Under the pieces are notes generated by a model, which searched no databases, was not told the origin of the DNA, and worked only from the letters and a program-made list of their open reading frames with translations. The position numbers were made by a program, and so were the translations under genes. Shown piece after piece: positions 5,977-39,419 of a stretch of DNA of 40,751 bases (the stretch's first letter is position 1; every line of letters starts with the position of its first letter). The stretch comes from Escherichia phage HK022: the sequence record NC_002166.1; one strand, written 5' to 3'.

Positions 5977-6309
5977 ATGCAGGCCGGGAAATTGCGCCAC
6001 AGGATTACTCTGCAGGAGCCAGTAAAAGTGCAGAACCCGACAACGGGAGCCGTAATTAATACCTGGCGAGATGTTGCGACTGTCCGGGCCGAAGTTTCAC
6101 CATTGTCAGCGCGTGAATTTATTGCTGCGCAGGCTTCTCAGGGTGAAATAACCACCCGTATTGTTATTCGCTACCGTGCCGGAGTTACCAGAAAACATCG
6201 CATCTTGTTTCGTGGTGCTGTGTATAACATCCATGGTGTTCTGCCCGATCCAAAAAGCGGACGTGAATACCTGACGCTTCCCTGTTCTGAGGGTGTTAAT
6301 GATGGCTGA
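5977..6309 (+). CDS. head-tail adaptor / head closure protein
   Basis: 110-aa ORF with GGGGGT RBS; full-length member of the head-tail joining family. Confidence 0.7.
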   Translation: MQAGKLRHRITLQEPVKVQNPTTGAVINTWRDVATVRAEVSPLSAREFIAAQASQGEITTRIVIRYRAGVTRKHRILFRGAVYNIHGVLPDPKSGREYLTLPCSEGVNDG

Positions 6310-20501: not shown

Positions 20502-20730
20502 TCAGGTCACTAATACTATCTAAGTAGTTGATTCATAGTGACTGGATATGTTGCGTTTTGTCGCATTATGTAGTCTATCATTTAACCACAGATTAGTGTA
20601 ATGCGATGATTTTTAAGTGATTAATGTTATTTTGTCATCCTTTAGGTGAATAAGTTGTATATTTAAAATCTCTTTAATTATCAGTAAATTAATGTAAGTA
20701 GGTCATTATTAGTCAAAATAAAATCATTTG
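20502..20730. other. attP region with lambda-type Int arm sites
   Basis: P-arm CAGGTCACTA (20503..20512) and inverted ATAGTGACTG (20535..20544); IHF-like site between them; P'-arm AGGTCATTAT / TAGTCAAAAT / AAATCATTTG at 20700..20730; spacing places the core near 20639..20653. Confidence 0.65.
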
Positions 20731-26600: not shown

Positions 26601-27657
26601 GGCTTTGTTGAATAAATCAGATTTCGGGTAAGTCTCCCCCGTAGCGGGTTGTGTTTTCAGGCAATACGCACGCTTTCAGGCATACCTGCTTTCGTCATTT
26701 TGTTCAGCGCTCGTACCAGGGCCATAGCCTCTGCAACCTGACCATCGTAGTCACGCAGTGTCAGTGAACCCCCGAACAGCTGTTTTACCCGGTACATCGC
26801 CGTTTCCGCTATCGAGCGACGGTTGTAATCTGTTGTCCATTTCCACCGCGCATTACTCCCGGTCATTCGCTGATTAGCCACTGCACGGTTACGGTCTGCA
26901 TATTCACCGGGCCAGTAACCCGCACCTTTTCGGGGAGGGATAAGCGCGCTGATTTTCTTACGCCGCAGTTCATCGTGACATAGCCGGGTATCGTAAGCGC
27001 CATCGGCGGCGGCTGACCTGATTTTCCGGTGGGTTTGCCGGATTAACCCGGGGAAGGCCTCTGAGTCCGTAACGTTGTTCAGCGACAGGTCAGCGCAGAT
27101 GATTTCATGTGTTTTACTGTCAACGGCGAGATGCAGCTTACGCCAGATACGGCGGCGTTCCTGGCCATGCTTTTTGACTTTCCACTCGCCTTCACCGAAG
27201 ACCTTCAGCCCGGTGGAATCAATTACCAGGTGTGCGATTTCACCCCGGGTGGGCGTTTTGAAACTGACATTAACCGACTTTGCCCGCCTGCTGACACAGC
27301 TGTAATCCGGGCAGCGTAGCGGAACGTTCATCAGAGAAAAAATGGAATCAATAAAGCCCTGCGCAGCGCGCAGGGTCAGCCTGAATACGCGTTTAATGAC
27401 CAGCACAGTCGTGATGGCAAGGTCAGAATAGCGCTGAGGTCTGCCTCGTGAAGAAGGTGTTGCTGACTCATACCAGGCCTGAATAGCTTCATCATCCAGC
27501 CAGAAAGTTATGGAGCCACGGTTGATGAGGGCTTTATTGTAGGTGGGCCAGTTGGTGATTTTGAACTTTTGCTTTGCCACGGAACGGTCTGCGTTGTCGG
27601 GAAGATACGTGATCTGATCCTTCAACTCAGCAAAAGTTCGATTTATTCAACAAAGCC
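26601..27657 (-). mobile_element. IS903-like insertion sequence (IS5 family), 1057 bp
   Basis: Perfect 18-bp terminal inverted repeats GGCTTTGTTGAATAAATC (26601..26618 and 27640..27657); flanked by 9-bp direct repeat TTGGAATGA (26592..26600 and 27658..27666). Confidence 0.9.
26657..27580 (-). CDS. IS903-type transposase
   Basis: 307 aa from GTG at 27580 (track extends to a TTG at 27625); ends ...MTKAGMPESVRIA as in IS903 transposase. Confidence 0.85.
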   Translation of the reverse strand: MAKQKFKITNWPTYNKALINRGSITFWLDDEAIQAWYESATPSSRGRPQRYSDLAITTVLVIKRVFRLTLRAAQGFIDSIFSLMNVPLRCPDYSCVSRRAKSVNVSFKTPTRGEIAHLVIDSTGLKVFGEGEWKVKKHGQERRRIWRKLHLAVDSKTHEIICADLSLNNVTDSEAFPGLIRQTHRKIRSAAADGAYDTRLCHDELRRKKISALIPPRKGAGYWPGEYADRNRAVANQRMTGSNARWKWTTDYNRRSIAETAMYRVKQLFGGSLTLRDYDGQVAEAMALVRALNKMTKAGMPESVRIA

Positions 27658-28421: not shown

Positions 28422-29129
28422 TTATCCGAATCGCTTGTAATCGATTGACTGCCTAATGAGGACTTTGGCTAGAATGTGAAGTTGCTCTTCTTCACCTTCT
28501 TCTATGTACCATCGATCATAAGCGGCATTGTCAGAGATGACGGCAAGCCTGTTCTTTTGCATTTGCAGGCGCTTAACGTGCATTGTTTTCCCGTATACAA
28601 ACACATAAATGCCATCGCCATCAAAACAGGTTATGGATACATCAACAAAGATCTCATCTCCCGGATTGATGGTTCCCTCCATGCTGTCACCGCGAACCGT
28701 GATGACTTTTACGCTTTCCTGTGGCCTTCCATTAAATAAAATTCTTGCCTGCTCGGTCGTATATTCAATTGCTCTTATCTTTTCTATAAATTCATTGGAA
28801 ACCATGGTTCCTGGCCCGGCGCTCGCCTGAACATCCAATACATCAACACGATAATAATCATTTGATCTTGATAGATGATTTACCGTGATACCGTCATCAT
28901 CAGCATAGCCATGCAGATATGCAGCAGTAGTTCCCAGCACCGAAGCCAGAGATTCCATCTTGTCTTTTCTTGGTATTGACTCCCCGTTGAACCATTTACT
29001 AATGGCTTTTGGTGTGACCTTAAGCCTGACAGCTAAATCAGCCTGCCTACCATGCAAAGGTAATCCCGCTTTATCACAGGCCAGCGCAAGCCTCTGCGAG
29101 AAAGTTTCACGCTCTTTCTGTTGAACCAT
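28422..29129 (-). CDS. cI: CI-type repressor (HTH + S24 LexA-like peptidase domain)
   Basis: 235 aa from ATG 29129; N-terminal HTH, Ala-Gly cleavage site (ASAGPG), catalytic Ser in GDSMEG and Lys in HVKRL; longer track ORF would overlap pR and cro. Confidence 0.85.
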   Translation of the reverse strand: MVQQKERETFSQRLALACDKAGLPLHGRQADLAVRLKVTPKAISKWFNGESIPRKDKMESLASVLGTTAAYLHGYADDDGITVNHLSRSNDYYRVDVLDVQASAGPGTMVSNEFIEKIRAIEYTTEQARILFNGRPQESVKVITVRGDSMEGTINPGDEIFVDVSITCFDGDGIYVFVYGKTMHVKRLQMQKNRLAVISDNAAYDRWYIEEGEEEQLHILAKVLIRQSIDYKRFG

Positions 29130-29136
29130 AAGTTCA
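29122..29136. promoter_or_regulatory. operator-like palindrome TGAACCATAAGTTCA (copy 1)
   Basis: 15-bp sequence with perfect TGAAC/GTTCA arms; centre overlaps the cI ATG. Confidence 0.45.
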
Positions 29137-29149
29137 ACTATATTAGGTA

Positions 29150-29178
29150 TTGACTGTACTATCAGTTCCGTCATAATA
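29150..29178 (+). promoter_or_regulatory. candidate pR promoter
   Basis: TTGACT (-35), 16-17 nt spacer, CATAAT/ATAATA (-10), 30 nt upstream of cro ATG. Confidence 0.55.
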
Positions 29179-29193
29179 TGAACCATAAGTTCA
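29179..29193. promoter_or_regulatory. operator-like palindrome TGAACCATAAGTTCA (copy 2)
   Basis: Identical 15-mer directly downstream of the pR -10 element. Confidence 0.45.
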
Positions 29194-29208
29194 CCACAGG
29201 AGAGAAGC

Positions 29209-29439
29209 ATGAACGAAGTTACGTTTGGAGAAGTTATCAAATCCGTTCGAGTTTCTGTTGTGGCTGATGTTTGTGGACTTACGCCAAAAGCCATCTATAA
29301 GTGGCTTGAGCGTGGTTCTCTGCCGCGTACCGAGTTCACTGGTGAAACCGAATATGCGGATAAGATCGCCAAGGCATCAGGCGGCAAGTACTCAGCAGCA
29401 CAGATTCGCCGTATCGGTAAACAGCAGTTTGTTATGTAA
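29209..29439 (+). CDS. cro: Cro-like repressor
   Basis: 76 aa; AGGAGA RBS; HTH (GLTPKAIYKWLERG); divergent from cI across the operator region. Confidence 0.7.
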   Translation: MNEVTFGEVIKSVRVSVVADVCGLTPKAIYKWLERGSLPRTEFTGETEYADKIAKASGGKYSAAQIRRIGKQQFVM

Positions 29440-29560: not shown

Positions 29561-29857
29561 ATGACACAAACAAGTTACAGCAAGCCAACACAGCGAGAAA
29601 TTGATCGCGCTGAAACTGATTTACTCATCAACCTGTCAACGCTTACCCAGCGCGGTCTGGCAAAGATGATTGGCTGTCATGAATCGAAGATAAGCAGAAC
29701 GGACTGGAGATTTATTGCTTCGGTCTTGTGTGCTTTCGGAATGGCATCAGACATCAGTCCGATTAGCAGGGCTTTTAAGTATGCGCTTGATGAAATCACA
29801 AAGAAAAAATCCCCGGCCGCCACCGAGGATTTTAAGCAAATTGATATGCAATTCTGA
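29561..29857 (+). CDS. cII: CII transcriptional activator
   Basis: 98 aa; C-terminus [18 protein letters not shown] parallels lambda CII KKRPAATERSEQIQMEF; GGAGA RBS. Confidence 0.85.
29570..29583 (-). promoter_or_regulatory. candidate CII-binding site of a pRE-like promoter (TTGC-N6-TTGT)
   Basis: minus-strand TTGCTGTAACTTGT within the first codons of cII, same position as the lambda TTGC-N6-TTGC. Confidence 0.35.
29804..29828 (-). terminator. candidate terminator of an oop-like antisense RNA
   Basis: minus-strand CCTCGG-uggcgg-CCGGGG hairpin followed by ATTTTTT, inside the 3' end of cII. Confidence 0.35.
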
Positions 29858-29889: not shown

Positions 29890-30036
29890 ATGACAAAACA
29901 ACTCAGTCCTTACCAGGACAAAATTCACAAACACATACTACGTGATCGCTTCCTGTCCAGCTTCAAGCAGCCTGGTCGATTCCGGGCTGAGTTGGAAAAA
30001 GTGAAGCTGATGCAGAAGGAGAAAGGTCATGAGTAA
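29890..30036 (+). CDS. hypothetical small protein (48 aa) between cII and the O-like gene
   Basis: GGAG 5 nt upstream of ATG 29890; stop overlaps the O-like start; basic protein; below track cut-off. Confidence 0.35.
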
Positions 30037-30928
30037 CATATCTAATCTAGCCGAAGCCAGAGAGGCCAGAAGGCTACAACAACCGCATCAAAGCAGCGGT
30101 AAGGGGTATGCCTTGCTGCACCGTAAAATTATGGATGTGCCGTTTTACAAGGATGCAGAAGCAGCGCATCTGTGGGTTCACTTAATCCTCAAAGCAAAGC
30201 ATACGCCTGAGTATGTAATGACTGACGCAGGAGAAATTCTGGTAGGTAGAGGGAAGCTACTTGGCGGTAGAAACTCTCTGGCGTTTGAAACAGGGCTCAA
30301 ACCAGATCGCGTTCAGTACCTGCTTAGAAAGTTCAAAAAACTCGGCATGATTGACTGGGTTTCACACGGTAAATTCTCAGTTTTCTCGGTAGAGAAATAT
30401 GACGATTATCAGTCAAATTTTGTACCAGCAGATTACCAGCAAATTACCACCTCAAAGCCAGCAATATCAATGTCTGTAAGCAATACTGTCCCAGCAGATT
30501 ACCAGCAAATTACCACAGATAAAGAATATAATAATATTATCTCTAATACTGACGTATTAGAGAGTGCCACAGCAGACAAAAAGTCTGACAAGAAAAAACC
30601 TTCCGTTAGCTGTCAGGATGTTGTCGATGCTTACCACGAAATCCTTCCTGAAGCGCCAAGAATCCGCGCACTGAATGACAAGCGTAAAAACCAGATCCGA
30701 ACGTTCTGGCGCAAAGCCGGAGTGATAACCCGCCAGCTTGACGGGCATGGGTTCACGATGCAGGACTGGAGAAATTATTTGAGCTACGTAGGCGAAAATT
30801 GCCGATGGATGTTCGAAGAGCGTCCAAACCATCAACGCGGAACCGTCTGGCACAAAAAGGGATTTGATTTCCTGCTTAACGATAATACCTACCTGAAAGT
30901 TCGTGAGGGTGAACACGATGACCGATAA
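30029..30928 (+). CDS. replication initiator (O-like / P22 gp18-like)
   Basis: 299 aa; contains the iteron array inside its coding sequence (repeated peptide [10 protein letters not shown]); followed by the helicase gene. Confidence 0.75.
30425..30516. repeat. candidate replication origin iterons
   Basis: Two perfect 26-nt direct repeats CCAGCAGATTACCAGCAAATTACCAC (30425..30450 and 30491..30516), each with two 11-nt sub-iterons, followed by an AT-rich stretch (30517..30545). Confidence 0.55.
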
Positions 30929-32354
30929 TTTTTATGCGCCGCCCCATAGCATCGAGGCAGAGCAGGCGGTGATTGGTGGATTGCTTCTGGATGATGACAG
31001 CAGTGAGCGCGTCCAGAAAGTCCTGGCGATGCTGAAGCCTGATTCATTTTACAGCCGACCACACAAAATCATTTTCGAAGAAATAACCAGAATGCACCGG
31101 GAGCAAAAGCCAGTAGATGGCCTGACGCTTTTCGATGAACTGGAGCGTAAATCGTTAACGGCGTCTGTTGGCGGTTTTGCTTATATCGCTGAGATCGCAA
31201 AGAACACGCCAAGCGCAGCAAACATCGTTGCCTATGCAATGCAGGTTCGAGAAACCGCAATGGAACGCTACGCCATCAACCGCATGACTGAAGCGACGGA
31301 ATTGCTCTATTCCCGCAACGGAATGACTGCAACGCAGAAGTACGAAGCTATTCAGTCGATTTTCACGCAACTGACAGACCATGCAAAAACCGGATCGCGT
31401 CGCGGCCTTCGTTCATTTGGTGAGGTCATGGAAGACTGGGTTAGCGACCTTGAGAAGCGATTTGACCCATCAGGCGAACAACGGGGAATGAGCACAGGGA
31501 TCCCATCGCTGGACAGGATGCTGTCACCGAAAGGTCTGGTGAAAGGCTCTCTGTTTGTCATTGGCGCTCGCCCTAAGATGGGTAAAACGACGCTATACAG
31601 CCAGATGGCAATCAACTGCGCAGTGCATGAGAAAAAGCCCGCTCTGATGTTCAGCCTTGAAATGCCCGGTGACCAGATACTGGAAAAACTGGTGGGACAG
31701 AAGTCAGGTGTTAACCCGAATATTTTTTACCTTCCGGCGACAAATGACGCTGATGACGGCTATCAGGGTGATTACGATGGTGACTTCAACAGGGCGATCG
31801 AAACAGCAAATCGCTTGAGTGAAATCGATATGCTTTACATCGACGACACGCCTGGATTATCTCTGGCACAAATCGTCAGCGAAAGCCGTCGAATCAAGCG
31901 AGAAAAAGGATGTGTTGGCATGATTCTGGTCGATTACCTGACACTAATGACCGCTGAGAAGGCCGATCGTAACGACCTTGCTTACGGCATGATCACCAAA
32001 GGATTGAAGAACCTTGCCAAAGAGCTTGATTGCGTTGTTGTGCTTCTGACACAGCTTAACCGCGCACTGGAAAGCCGAACCAATAAACGCCCATTACCAA
32101 GTGACTCGCGCGATACAGGGCAGATTGAACAGGATTGCGATTATTGGGTGGGGATCCATCGTGAAGGTGCTTTTGATGACAGTGTTCCACCTGGTGAAAC
32201 CGAACTAATCCTTCGTCTCAATCGTCATGGCAATACCGGCACGGTGTATTGCATTCAGGCAAATGGCGCTATTTATGACACAGACCAACAGTCTGCTGAA
32301 ATGCGCCGCCGTGAACGCGAGGAACCGCAATCCAAGAAGAAAGGAGGATTCTGA
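30918..32354 (+). CDS. replicative DNA helicase (DnaB family)
   Basis: 478 aa from ATG 30918 (GAGGG RBS); Walker A GARPKMGKTT and DnaB-like C-terminal domain. Confidence 0.9.
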   Translation: MTDNFYAPPHSIEAEQAVIGGLLLDDDSSERVQKVLAMLKPDSFYSRPHKIIFEEITRMHREQKPVDGLTLFDELERKSLTASVGGFAYIAEIAKNTPSAANIVAYAMQVRETAMERYAINRMTEATELLYSRNGMTATQKYEAIQSIFTQLTDHAKTGSRRGLRSFGEVMEDWVSDLEKRFDPSGEQRGMSTGIPSLDRMLSPKGLVKGSLFVIGARPKMGKTTLYSQMAINCAVHEKKPALMFSLEMPGDQILEKLVGQKSGVNPNIFYLPATNDADDGYQGDYDGDFNRAIETANRLSEIDMLYIDDTPGLSLAQIVSESRRIKREKGCVGMILVDYLTLMTAEKADRNDLAYGMITKGLKNLAKELDCVVVLLTQLNRALESRTNKRPLPSDSRDTGQIEQDCDYWVGIHREGAFDDSVPPGETELILRLNRHGNTGTVYCIQANGAIYDTDQQSAEMRRREREEPQSKKKGGF

Positions 32355-32435
32355 TGACCATCTACATCACTGAGCTAATAGCAGGGTTATCGTTACTAAT
32401 GGTTCTTACTGTATATATTATTAAGTATATTCTTT

Positions 32436-33047
32436 ATGCGAATAAAAAAACTAATTGATCACGATGAGCTTCTGTCAACATTATCATATGACTCAGAAAC
32501 AGGAATATTTAAATGGCTAAAAACAAATTCAGTAGTAAGAGTAAAAGGTAGTATTGCTGGAGGTGTTAGTGGTGGTTATATATGCATTAGCATAAATAAT
32601 GTTTTGTATTATGCGCATAGACTTGCTTGGTTCTATGTATACAAAAAATGGCCTCCTAAGTTTATTGATCATGTAAATGGGAACAGACTTGACAATAGGA
32701 TTTCAAATCTAAGACTGGCAACAGAAGAGCAGAATGCAAGAAACATTGTAGGGAATAGATTAAACACATCCGGTGCAATTGGAGTGTCTTGGTATAAGCC
32801 AACTGGCAGGTGGAAGTCTTATGTTGGTTATAAAAATAAGACAATATCGTTAGGGTATTTCGATAGCAAAGAAGATGCAGCATTCATAGCAGCACTAGCA
32901 AGAAAGAAACTATATGGAACTTATGCGAGTAAAGCACTTAATTGCGAGCATGAGCTTTTATCTCAATTTAATAATGATGAGGATAAACTTGCGGAATATC
33001 TTAAGGAAAAATCTAAAAGGACTCGAAAGCGTGTTAAAAACAGATAA
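32436..33047 (+). CDS. HNH endonuclease with AP2-like DNA-binding domain
   Basis: 203 aa; HNH core (HRLAW...IDHVNGNRLDNRISNLRLAT..EQN) plus AP2-like segment (GVSWYKPTGRWKSYVGYKNKTISLGYF); region markedly AT-rich. Confidence 0.7.
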   Translation: MRIKKLIDHDELLSTLSYDSETGIFKWLKTNSVVRVKGSIAGGVSGGYICISINNVLYYAHRLAWFYVYKKWPPKFIDHVNGNRLDNRISNLRLATEEQNARNIVGNRLNTSGAIGVSWYKPTGRWKSYVGYKNKTISLGYFDSKEDAAFIAALARKKLYGTYASKALNCEHELLSQFNNDEDKLAEYLKEKSKRTRKRVKNR

Positions 33048-33049
33048 AG

Positions 33050-33076
33050 GCCTGCTGGTAATCGCAGGCCTTTTTA
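33050..33076 (+). terminator. rho-independent terminator
   Basis: GGCCTGC-tggtaat-GCAGGCC hairpin plus T5. Confidence 0.65.
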
Positions 33077-38690: not shown

Positions 38691-39419
38691 ATGTCCAATA
38701 TCATCCCGATTGATTTCGAAGGCCATCCCATGCGTTTTTCTGACGATGGCTGGTTTGACGCGACTGCGGCAGCTGACAAGTTCAACAAGGAGCCGGCTCA
38801 GTGGCTTAGGCTTCCTGAGACTGTCCGTTACATCGAGGCGTTAAAGAGTAGATATGGGAATATCACATATGTAAAAACCAGCCGCGCTCGCAAAGACCGT
38901 GGCGGCGGAACATGGCTTCACCCAAAACTGGCGGTCAGATTTGCTCGATGGCTTTCTGTAGATTTTGAGATCTGGTGTGATGAGCAAATTGACGCAATCA
39001 TTCAGGGTTCCGTTCATCATATCGACGATGAAAGAATAAAGGCTATTTTCCTTCTGGATAAATCTCAGCCATGGGAAAAGAGGTTTAGCGATCCGTTTTA
39101 TTCTGCGATGTTCAAAATGTCAGGGCTGCCCCGTCATCGACCAGGTCGTCGCCCCGCACTATTTGGGATGATCAGTGCCAAGTGGGTATATGGCCCGGTA
39201 TTACCACCAGAAGTATATGCAGAGGTTAAAAGACGGCTGGCTGCAGGAGACAAAATCCATCAGCACCTTAAACCTGACGCGCTGACATTGGTTGAGCGAC
39301 AGATCATTGCCGTTACCAGCATTGCCAATGGGTGCTCTGATTATCGTGATTTCGAAGCGCGTTGCATGTCGGCATTCCCGGTGAAAGGGCAGATGAAATT
39401 GCTCTATGCGGCGGCCTGA
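38691..39419 (+). CDS. KilA-N domain protein
   Basis: 242 aa from ATG 38691; N-terminal KilA-N-like segment (IPIDFEGHPMRFSDDGWFDATAAADKF...WLHPKLAVRFARWLS). Confidence 0.55.
   Translation: MSNIIPIDFEGHPMRFSDDGWFDATAAADKFNKEPAQWLRLPETVRYIEALKSRYGNITYVKTSRARKDRGGGTWLHPKLAVRFARWLSVDFEIWCDEQIDAIIQGSVHHIDDERIKAIFLLDKSQPWEKRFSDPFYSAMFKMSGLPRHRPGRRPALFGMISAKWVYGPVLPPEVYAEVKRRLAAGDKIHQHLKPDALTLVERQIIAVTSIANGCSDYRDFEARCMSAFPVKGQMKLLYAAA

Follow-up and report, generated by a model that had tools for sequence, protein, structure and literature searches.

Sequence anatomy and relatives of a probable iteron-type replication origin within gene O of Escherichia phage HK022

The genome of Escherichia phage HK022 (NC_002166.1), a stretch of 40,751 bp referred to here as the window, was analyzed around an O-like gene in its right half. 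Over its 900 bp, the 299-amino-acid open reading frame at 30029-30928 matches the O gene of HK022 in record U02466.1 at 100% identity, and the gene order of that record, cro, cII, orf48, O (annotated "DNA replication") and P, is also the order found in the window. The genes of the region that bear on the analysis are the following:

28422-29294, minus strand: S24/HTH repressor gene
29209-29439: cro
29561-29857: CII gene (Pfam Phage_CII, E value 5e-33)
30029-30928, plus strand: O-like replication initiator gene, 299 amino acids, an open reading frame that would contain the origin
30918-32354, plus strand: P gene, DnaB-like replicative helicase, with its start as in U02466.1 (the mechanically called open reading frame begins at 30903)

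The initiator falls into the HK022 O protein family, matching phrog_345, "replication initiation O-like," over residues 2-299 with an E value of 1.3e-87 in PHROGs, where further matches were to DnaD-like families (E value 7e-21). No Pfam or NCBIfam family was matched by O at curated cutoffs, and sequence searches of the PDB gave nothing significant; the sub-threshold Pfam matches were all to winged helix-turn-helix families, Phage_rep_org_N and DnaD_N among them. The product of gene P, presumed to be the partner of O, matched Pfam DnaB_C (E value 2.7e-60) and the DnaB N-terminal domain (E value 6.1e-32) when read from 30903 to 32354. An Rfam search over the whole window gave nothing significant. 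Oberto et al. 1994 is said to be the original sequence paper for HK022 cro-cII-O-P.

Within O, the coding regions of two predicted domains enclose a set of repeats, an AT-rich tract, and a palindrome:

30029-30418, plus strand: coding region of the N-terminal domain (aa 1-130), predicted winged helix-turn-helix and presumed iteron reader
30421-30453, plus strand: iteron block 1, TGTACCAGCAG ATTACCAGCAA ATTACCACCTC, with CCA cores at 30425, 30436, and 30447
30454-30486, plus strand: 33-bp spacer (3 x 11 bp) between the blocks, variable in sequence, with the blocks staying in helical phase
30487-30519, plus strand: iteron block 2, TGTCCCAGCAG ATTACCAGCAA ATTACCACAGA, with CCA cores at 30491, 30502, and 30513
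30517-30547, no strand assigned: AT-rich tract, presumed DNA-unwinding element, from A+T content and duplex stability
30540-30563, no strand assigned: perfect palindrome TCTCTAATAC-TGAC-GTATTAGAGA, with 10-bp arms around a 4-nt loop, closing the putative origin on the right
30602-30925, plus strand: coding region of the C-terminal helical domain (aa 192-299), AlphaFold2 pLDDT 80-92, helical to aa 296

The 26-nt sequence CCAGCAGATTACCAGCAAATTACCAC occurs on the plus strand at 30425-30450 and again at 30491-30516, a start-to-start spacing of 66 bp, and has no third copy in the window, also when three mismatches are tolerated. Across 100 dinucleotide-preserving shuffles none was expected by chance, even at 3 mismatches, and the two perfect direct repeats claimed in an earlier, sequence-only reading of this DNA are therefore real. 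The repeat lengthens to 30 nt with one mismatch (30421-30450 versus 30487-30516) and to 35 nt at 91% identity. That reading had divided each repeat into two 11-nt sub-iterons; sub-repeats of this length, CAGATTACCAG and CAAATTACCAC, are present in the blocks, but their number has to be revised, the better register being three 11-bp units per block (TGTACCAGCAG / ATTACCAGCAA / ATTACCAC..). There are thus six CCA cores, at offsets 0, 11, 22, 66, 77, and 88, with the consensus T[A/C]CCA[G/C]. The units are direct repeats without dyad symmetry, and within the putative origin the core is found on the plus strand only. No second cluster of cores was found elsewhere in the window, and no sigma-70-like promoter was found near the repeats. 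There is no DnaA box near the putative origin either, the sole match in the window lying at 6219. Both blocks code for one 10-amino-acid peptide, at aa 132-141 and aa 154-163 of the 299-aa frame; the earlier claim that the repeats encode a duplicated peptide in the linker of the initiator agrees with the AlphaFold2 model, in which the linker spans aa 124-191.

The AT-rich tract that had been noted after the repeats was likewise recovered. A+T makes up 80% of positions 30517-30561 and 50.5% of the window, and by nearest-neighbor free energy no 30-mer is less stable than 30518-30547, which ranks 1 of 40,721. The right boundary had been drawn at 30545 and had to be moved, as it cuts through the palindrome at 30540-30563; the element extends to 30563. 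Perfect short-loop inverted repeats of at least 10 bp number two in the window, with 0.15 expected, and the palindrome is one of them. The other, at 33046-33073, is an ordinary G+C-rich terminator. As single-stranded DNA the palindrome would fold at about -7.5 kcal/mol, with a z score of about -6.6, on either strand.

The AlphaFold2 model of O had a mean pLDDT of 61. Its alignment was shallow and its confidence moderate because homologue searches gave mostly near-identical sequences. The predicted N-terminal domain consists of a helix at aa 43-55, a β-hairpin at aa 57-78, helices at aa 81-88 and aa 92-104, and a wing at aa 108-123, with pLDDT values of about 65-84. Next comes a segment of low confidence, aa 124-191, predicted to be a disordered linker, and the iterons, the AT-rich tract, and the palindrome (aa 131-179) lie wholly inside the part of the gene that codes for it. 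The model fits a flexible linker whose sequence would be free to serve the DNA. A Foldseek search of the PDB gave as best matches the winged-helix domains of CRP, CooA, and CodY, with E values of about 0.02 (0.017 or higher), which are not significant; because these matches are to generic winged helices only, they do not place the domain in a particular initiator fold family. PDB, Foldseek, and profile searches matched the N-terminal domain significantly neither to λ O nor to any initiator of solved structure, in sequence or in fold. The C-terminal domain is presumed to be a helicase-recruiting module that is swapped independently of the origin.

The layout was then compared among relatives, comprising the O-like genes of annotated phages and 51 loci in bacterial genomes, the latter collected with a search profile that left out Pseudomonas sequence. 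In 42 of 58 O-like genes the best internal direct repeat falls in the linker region, its two copies offset by exactly 66 bp. When the scan took register into account, 49 O-like genes showed the full arrangement of 3 x 11 bp, a 33-bp spacer, 3 x 11 bp, an AT-rich tract, and a palindrome; they come from phages and from prophages of Enterobacterales, with protein identities as low as about 40%, and in 47 of them the six CCA cores stand in exact register. The 45 bp after block 2 are 69-84% A+T in the relatives, against 47-64% for the genes. The cores fall into classes: TACCAG in HK022, GTCCAA in class B (ST64T, HK629, and the phage L 11-mer), GTCCAG in Klebsiella phage Chronis, TGCCAA in ST11-VIM1phi8.1 and Erwinia phage 59, as well as ATCCAA, TCCCAG, and others, so that at least six iteron classes exist. 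Remoter relatives have 11-bp repeats of unrelated sequence or 12-bp variants.

Several features of these genes separate selection on DNA from selection on protein. A period of 11 bp means that the same core is read in three frames, and the differences between block 1 and block 2 were nonsynonymous in 123 codons and not so in 21. Between genes of the same core class whose N-terminal domains are 30-50% identical, the iterons keep 88% nucleotide identity and the spacer 47%; across genomes with a strongly diverged spacer and N-terminal domain, the blocks remain 88-97% identical in nucleotides. Among 92 close HK022-class proteins, the spacer has 13.7 variant residues per column and the iteron-encoded peptides have 0.4, and there is no amino acid variation at all in the AT-rich tract, making the iteron peptides and the tract at least as conserved as the folded domains. 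Because the core is read in three frames, the block differences are mostly nonsynonymous, and the iterons outlast the spacer, this comparative evidence indicates that the constraint is on the DNA and not on the peptide.

In 49 of 49 relatives there is, at the position of the palindrome, a perfect 9- to 10-bp inverted repeat with a loop of exactly 4 nt (T-N-A-M), and the arms vary widely (ACTTACTACC/GGTAGTAAGT, ACTCAATATC/GATATTGAGT, and ATCATTATC/GATAATGAT are examples), as do the peptides they encode. Over the 29 distinct sequences, 96.9% of cells are paired, against 60.6% in shuffles, and 0 of 500 shuffles match the observed value, in an alignment that was built by choosing the best inverted repeat of each gene and is therefore fitted to the structure. 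Even with an alignment so fitted, chance falls far short of explaining why every gene has a perfect 9-bp inverted repeat in one fixed place. All ten pairs have changed on both sides among the 29 sequences, which constitutes compensatory change, and the inner nine contain no one-sided (G-U type) cells, only Watson-Crick pairs. Because G-U pairs are missing from these nine, the element was taken as a DNA palindrome, and its reading as an RNA hairpin was dropped. A reading as an intrinsic terminator was also dropped, the stem being AT rich and the tail mixed.

The iterons of a gene go with its N-terminal domain. Among the relatives, iteron identity tracked N-domain identity (Spearman 0.55, Mantel p about 0.0005), a correlation of which part could be linkage because the iterons adjoin the DNA coding for that domain, and it did not track C-domain identity (Spearman 0.03, p 0.27). 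The iterons adjoin the C-domain coding DNA equally, and the observed junctions lie to their right. No pair among the relatives compared had N-terminal domains at least 80% identical and iterons below 80%. Co-variation with the dinucleotide 5' of the CCA core is strongest at a set of residues that includes Y97, R100, and K104, all in the predicted recognition helix at aa 92-104, and W110, V111, and E122 in the wing. Position 97 is tyrosine in 27 of 27 TA/TG/TC-class genes and is S, A, or T in 20 of 20 GT/AT/AG-class genes. This covariation, which is confounded by phylogeny, is suggestive only.

Natural chimeras give the same division. From 30535 to the end of the gene, HK022 and HK629 differ by two mismatches, and upstream they are about 50% identical with different iterons; the mosaic junction, at about 30530-30537, lies inside the AT-rich tract just before the palindrome. 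In Erwinia phage 59 an N-terminal domain of the HK022 family and class-D iterons are joined to a C-terminal domain 70% identical to that of λ O (E value 9e-65), and a λ P-like loader follows the chimeric gene in place of the helicase. As far as their sequences tell, these chimeras fit a view in which the N-terminal domain and the origin form one module and the C-terminal domain and its partner another. Such a two-module division of labor is classical for lambdoid phages.

The number of blocks also varies. Close relatives of HK022 O are 299 amino acids long with two blocks, 321 with three, and 343 with four, by tandem gain of a 22-aa/66-bp module, and the Chronis-like class includes 298-aa forms along with 276/277-aa forms that have a single block. 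The linker tolerates gain or loss of 22-aa modules. Two blocks predominate by far, and the one-block variants (276-277 aa) form one cluster, present on up to 10 contigs. It may be that two blocks are not strictly required, or the one-block prophages may be defective.

Closely related phages already carry an annotation at this place. The record of VT2-Sakai (AP000422) labels the same two repeats "ori iteron 1/2" and has O protein binding them, and in HK620 (NC_002730) a rep_origin is annotated on them, with block 1 as its first piece. Both sets of features map exactly to window positions 30421-30450 and 30487-30516, and the O genes of these two phages are 98-99% identical to the window. The records mark two repeats of about 30 bp only, without the 11-bp cores, the AT-rich tract, or the palindrome, and as far as they show, the annotation was made by analogy. 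The origin of HK022 is in that sense already known, having been inferred and annotated in sister phages; the finding is sound but not new, and since those phages already carry the annotation, little is added as discovery.

The sequence-only reading had likened the locus to the λ origin inside O, and the likeness holds for the layout. The λ element (iterons at 39034-39118 and palindrome at 39162-39189) lies within initiator gene O, between a domain that reads the origin and a domain that recruits the partner, downstream of cro and cII. Repeats are followed by an AT-rich tract of about 40 bp and, to its right, by a palindrome with a 4-nt loop (GTCAGAGAATTC-TGGC-GAATCCTCTGAC). In λ too, the N-terminal domain and iterons swap together, as do the C-terminal domain and its partner. 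The likeness does not extend to the iterons or to the protein that would read them. λ has four iterons of 18-19 bp, imperfect inverted repeats with dyad symmetry to which O dimers bind (PMC5043065, PMC7466680), whereas HK022 has six direct 11-bp units without such symmetry. Between HK022 O and λ O, BLASTP found nothing, the Pfam family Phage_rep_O was not matched, and a profile of the N-terminal domain aligned to that of λ O with an hhalign probability of 0.4%. A full-length alignment to λ O at 97.5% probability was set aside, as it does not reflect homology of the N-terminal domains and is caused by the λ-type C-terminal domain of Erwinia phage 59. The partner also differs, being a phage DnaB-like helicase in HK022 and not a loader of host DnaB of the λ P type. 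By analogy, the HK022 element would work like oriλ, yet it belongs to a separate, already recognized group with VT2-Sakai, HK620, and L, one whose partner protein is, like that of P22, a DnaB-like helicase of the phage. The main proposal of the earlier reading, an iteron-type origin in an O-like gene, fared well: every feature that the oriλ pattern predicts at the sequence level was found, and by the same analogy the element would bind O and serve replication.

Other known origins share some of these properties. P22 genes 18 and 12 resemble HK022 in pairing an initiator with a phage DnaB-like helicase, in having orf48 upstream, and in carrying the origin inside the initiator gene. The annotated P22 origin (NC_002371, 32840-32984) ends exactly at a palindrome, CCCCC-TAAA-GGGGG, with TAAA as its loop. 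Unlike in HK022, the P22 repeats are about 20 bp long, built on TCGGTAAA/TTTACCGA, and dyad in character. The match of O to P22 gp18 is weak (BLASTP E value 1e-5, 22% identity over aa 80-294), and the hhalign probability for the N-domain profile, 5%, is not significant. In gene 18 of phage L, Casjens and co-workers described six 11-bp repeats, TGTCCAACGGA, and proposed them as the likely origin (bioRxiv 10.1101/2020.10.05.325894 / PMC8022706); they also cite genetic evidence by which the replication region of L functions only as a whole (PMC8022706). Phage L has the same family architecture as HK022, and class-B relatives (ST64T, HK629, and others) contain its 11-mer exactly, in two triplets 66 bp apart. 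It differs in its core, GTCCAA versus TACCAG, and in an N-domain class about 50% identical. The iteron origins of plasmids (those of pPS10/pSC101 RepA, F RepE, R6K π, and RK2 TrfA) also combine phased direct repeats, winged-helix initiators, and an AT-rich unwinding element (PMC5043065). Their iterons, however, are 17-22 bp long, intergenic, and usually accompanied by DnaA boxes, unlike the 11-bp units of HK022, which lie inside the coding sequence of the initiator with no DnaA box nearby. The study of Stx-phage O and origin concerns λ-type O proteins, and the searchable literature contained no experiments on an HK022-type origin, so that an origin function for this element rests on analogy together with comparative evidence.

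Given the sequence anatomy, conservation, co-variation, domain layout, and module exchange described above, positions 30421-30563, in the linker-coding part of O, are very likely the vegetative (theta) replication origin of HK022. The gene context of cro, cII, orf48, O, and a DnaB-like P is, by its sequence, that of a P22-like replication module, and it supports this reading. We infer the binding of O, the unwinding, the loading of the helicase, and any role of the palindrome from the comparisons, and the steps would be as follows. The winged-helix domain of O would read six sites phased at 11 bp and grouped in two triplets 66 bp apart, a spacing that would bring all six nearly onto one face of the helix. 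The resulting O-DNA array would put stress on the AT-rich tract at 30517-30547, which would melt in supercoiled DNA, and the opened stretch would end at the palindrome, 30540-30563, which may take the form of a hairpin or cruciform. Recruitment of the phage's own DnaB-like helicase, the product of gene P, would then fall to the C-terminal domain of O.

Other explanations of the repeats were weighed against the comparative data. They could be O-binding sites mainly for control, through titration, autoregulation, or handcuffing-like copy control, with initiation elsewhere in the genome. In iteron plasmids the same repeats act both in initiation and in negative control (PMC5043065), and a block number that ranges from 1 to 4 among close relatives is what a dosage-type element would be expected to show. 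We nevertheless regard a mainly regulatory role as very unlikely: the least stable duplex and a conserved palindrome come directly after the repeats, an arrangement shared with oriλ and the annotated origin of P22, and the window offers neither a second core cluster nor a nearby sigma-70-like promoter to regulate. Slippage or unequal crossing-over could instead have duplicated a stretch of disordered linker with no DNA function, or a peptide motif could be under selection at the protein level. The module of 66 bp divides evenly into codons, its copy number is polymorphic (276/277, 298/299, 321, and 343 aa), and the region is predicted to be disordered, all as such a history would have it. It would not account for a sub-period of 11 bp, which is no multiple of 3 and puts the core in three frames, for block differences that are mostly nonsynonymous, or for blocks still 88-97% identical beside a diverged spacer and N-terminal domain. 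With six cores in register in 47 of 49 genes and a repeat class that tracks the DNA-binding domain, an origin of the repeats in protein or chance duplication is scarcely credible.

The right half of the element invites a separate doubt, namely, that the AT-rich tract and palindrome are chiefly a recombination junction for module exchange, or that the palindrome is a weak terminator of leftward transcription, neither being a working part of the origin. The HK022/HK629 junction does lie inside the tract, at about 30530-30537, and in a consensus scan the minus strand of the palindrome came up as terminator-like, with TAATATTATT after the hairpin. A junction driven by homology, however, does not call for the structure to be kept, and here it has been, by compensatory changes between differing arms. 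As an intrinsic terminator the palindrome would be poor, with just 3 G-C pairs in its stem and a tail of mixed A/T, and exclusive Watson-Crick pairing, with no G-U in the inner nine pairs, points to DNA rather than RNA. In oriλ, as in the P22 origin that has been annotated, a palindrome stands in the equivalent place, and we give these two explanations hardly any weight.

For the palindrome within an origin at 30421-30563, a wider role can be suggested tentatively. It would have been selected for its structure and not its sequence, and it could be a general working part of lambdoid origins, a proposal we hold to be possible but doubtful, made because of the compensatory pairing in the 49 relatives and the equivalent position in oriλ and P22, whose initiators show no detectable relation in their N-terminal domains. 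It might, for instance, extrude as a hairpin or cruciform on melting of the AT-rich tract and mark the site of helicase loading or a stop to unwinding. The defense system Lamassu has been reported to detect structure at the λ origin (bioRxiv 10.1101/2025.04.02.646746), and a transient structure of the palindrome could be a target of such structure-sensing systems at phage origins. The conservation of structure in the palindrome may be the sole aspect of the element worth follow-up.

With the cores, the presumed unwinding element, and the palindrome placed exactly, there are defined targets for mutagenesis and for studies of incompatibility and interference. With at least six iteron classes, compatible phage-derived replicons of swappable specificity could be built, and the direct 11-mers of HK022 set beside the dyad 19-mers of λ offer a natural system in which to ask how two recognition modes would open one kind of origin. 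The segment is also widespread, being found in 374 of 5,426 complete E. coli genomes and in Shiga-toxin phages, among them VT2-Sakai and Stx1/Stx2 converting phages. In phages of this kind, replication drives the dosage of the toxin genes.

To the right of the AT tract in the inferred HK022 origin lies a perfect palindrome:

30540-30563, palindrome with 10-bp arms and a 4-nt loop

The palindrome is present at the equivalent position in the related O-like loci, L003 to L057, and was kept by 49 of 49 relatives. Across these 49 relatives its arms vary by compensatory changes, and the inner nine pairs are free of G-T pairs. Counterparts occupy the equivalent place in both oriλ and the annotated P22 origin, and the VT2-Sakai and HK620 records, in which the two repeats of a near-identical O gene are annotated as the origin, leave the palindrome without annotation. 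Measured over 50 bp, duplex stability elsewhere in the window falls to the level of the origin AT tract at 20640-20724 and 32386-32461, and in no further regions.

The iteron array varies in both block number and unit spacing. A 66-bp module, comprising an iteron block and its spacer and encoding 22 amino acids, differs in copy number among the initiator proteins, giving forms of 276/277, 298/299, 321, and 343 amino acids with one, two, three, and four blocks, respectively. These variants were drawn from the initiator homologues P0001, P0002, P0004, and P0006 of the HK022 class and P0136 and P0143 of the Chronis-like class. Other relatives depart from the usual spacing or are natural chimeras:

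L032 and L033 (Leclercia / Silvania prophages), gene positions about 415-515, 12-bp-spaced variant
L009 (Erwinia phage vB_EhrS_59), 986-1936, chimeric initiator; also loci L050-L053 and L057

The L032 and L033 cores are of the TTACCA type and are spaced at 12 bp rather than the usual 11 bp, with about 80 bp from block to block instead of 66, and both the AT tract and the palindrome are retained. The chimeras join an N-domain of the HK022 family and TGCCA-type iterons to a C-domain that shares 70% identity with the λ O C-domain. The downstream partner in L009 is a λ P-like loader, replacing the DnaB-like helicase, and a sequence similar to the left arm of the λ palindrome, GTCAGAGAATTTC, is retained immediately past the phage's own palindrome.

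Several further features lie outside the origin:

26657-27625, minus strand, IS-type DDE transposase gene (Pfam DDE_Tnp_1_5, E 3e-40; DDE_Tnp_1)
29806-29833, minus strand, terminator-like hairpin and T-run overlapping the end of cII
29890-30036, plus strand, orf48, 48 amino acids (Pfam DUF2740), overlapping the O start
32436-33047, plus strand, HNH endonuclease gene with an AP2 domain, directly after the helicase gene
33046-33073, perfect 10-bp inverted repeat AAAGGCCTGC..GCAGGCCTTT and T-run, after the HNH gene

In HK022, P22, HK620, and Klebsiella phages alike, a conserved orf48 precedes the initiator. Its label of "tail protein" in PHROGs and in several RefSeq records is implausible because the gene belongs to the replication module. 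The cII hairpin matches in position the oop RNA terminator of λ-like phages; an Rfam search of the entire window at the gathering threshold returned no match. The transposase gene, which has the immunity region to its right, resembles an insertion sequence carried in the phage genome. The HNH/AP2 product resembles a homing endonuclease. The inverted repeat that follows its gene is, apart from the origin palindrome, the window's only perfect one of 10 bp; together with its T-run it is a canonical intrinsic terminator.
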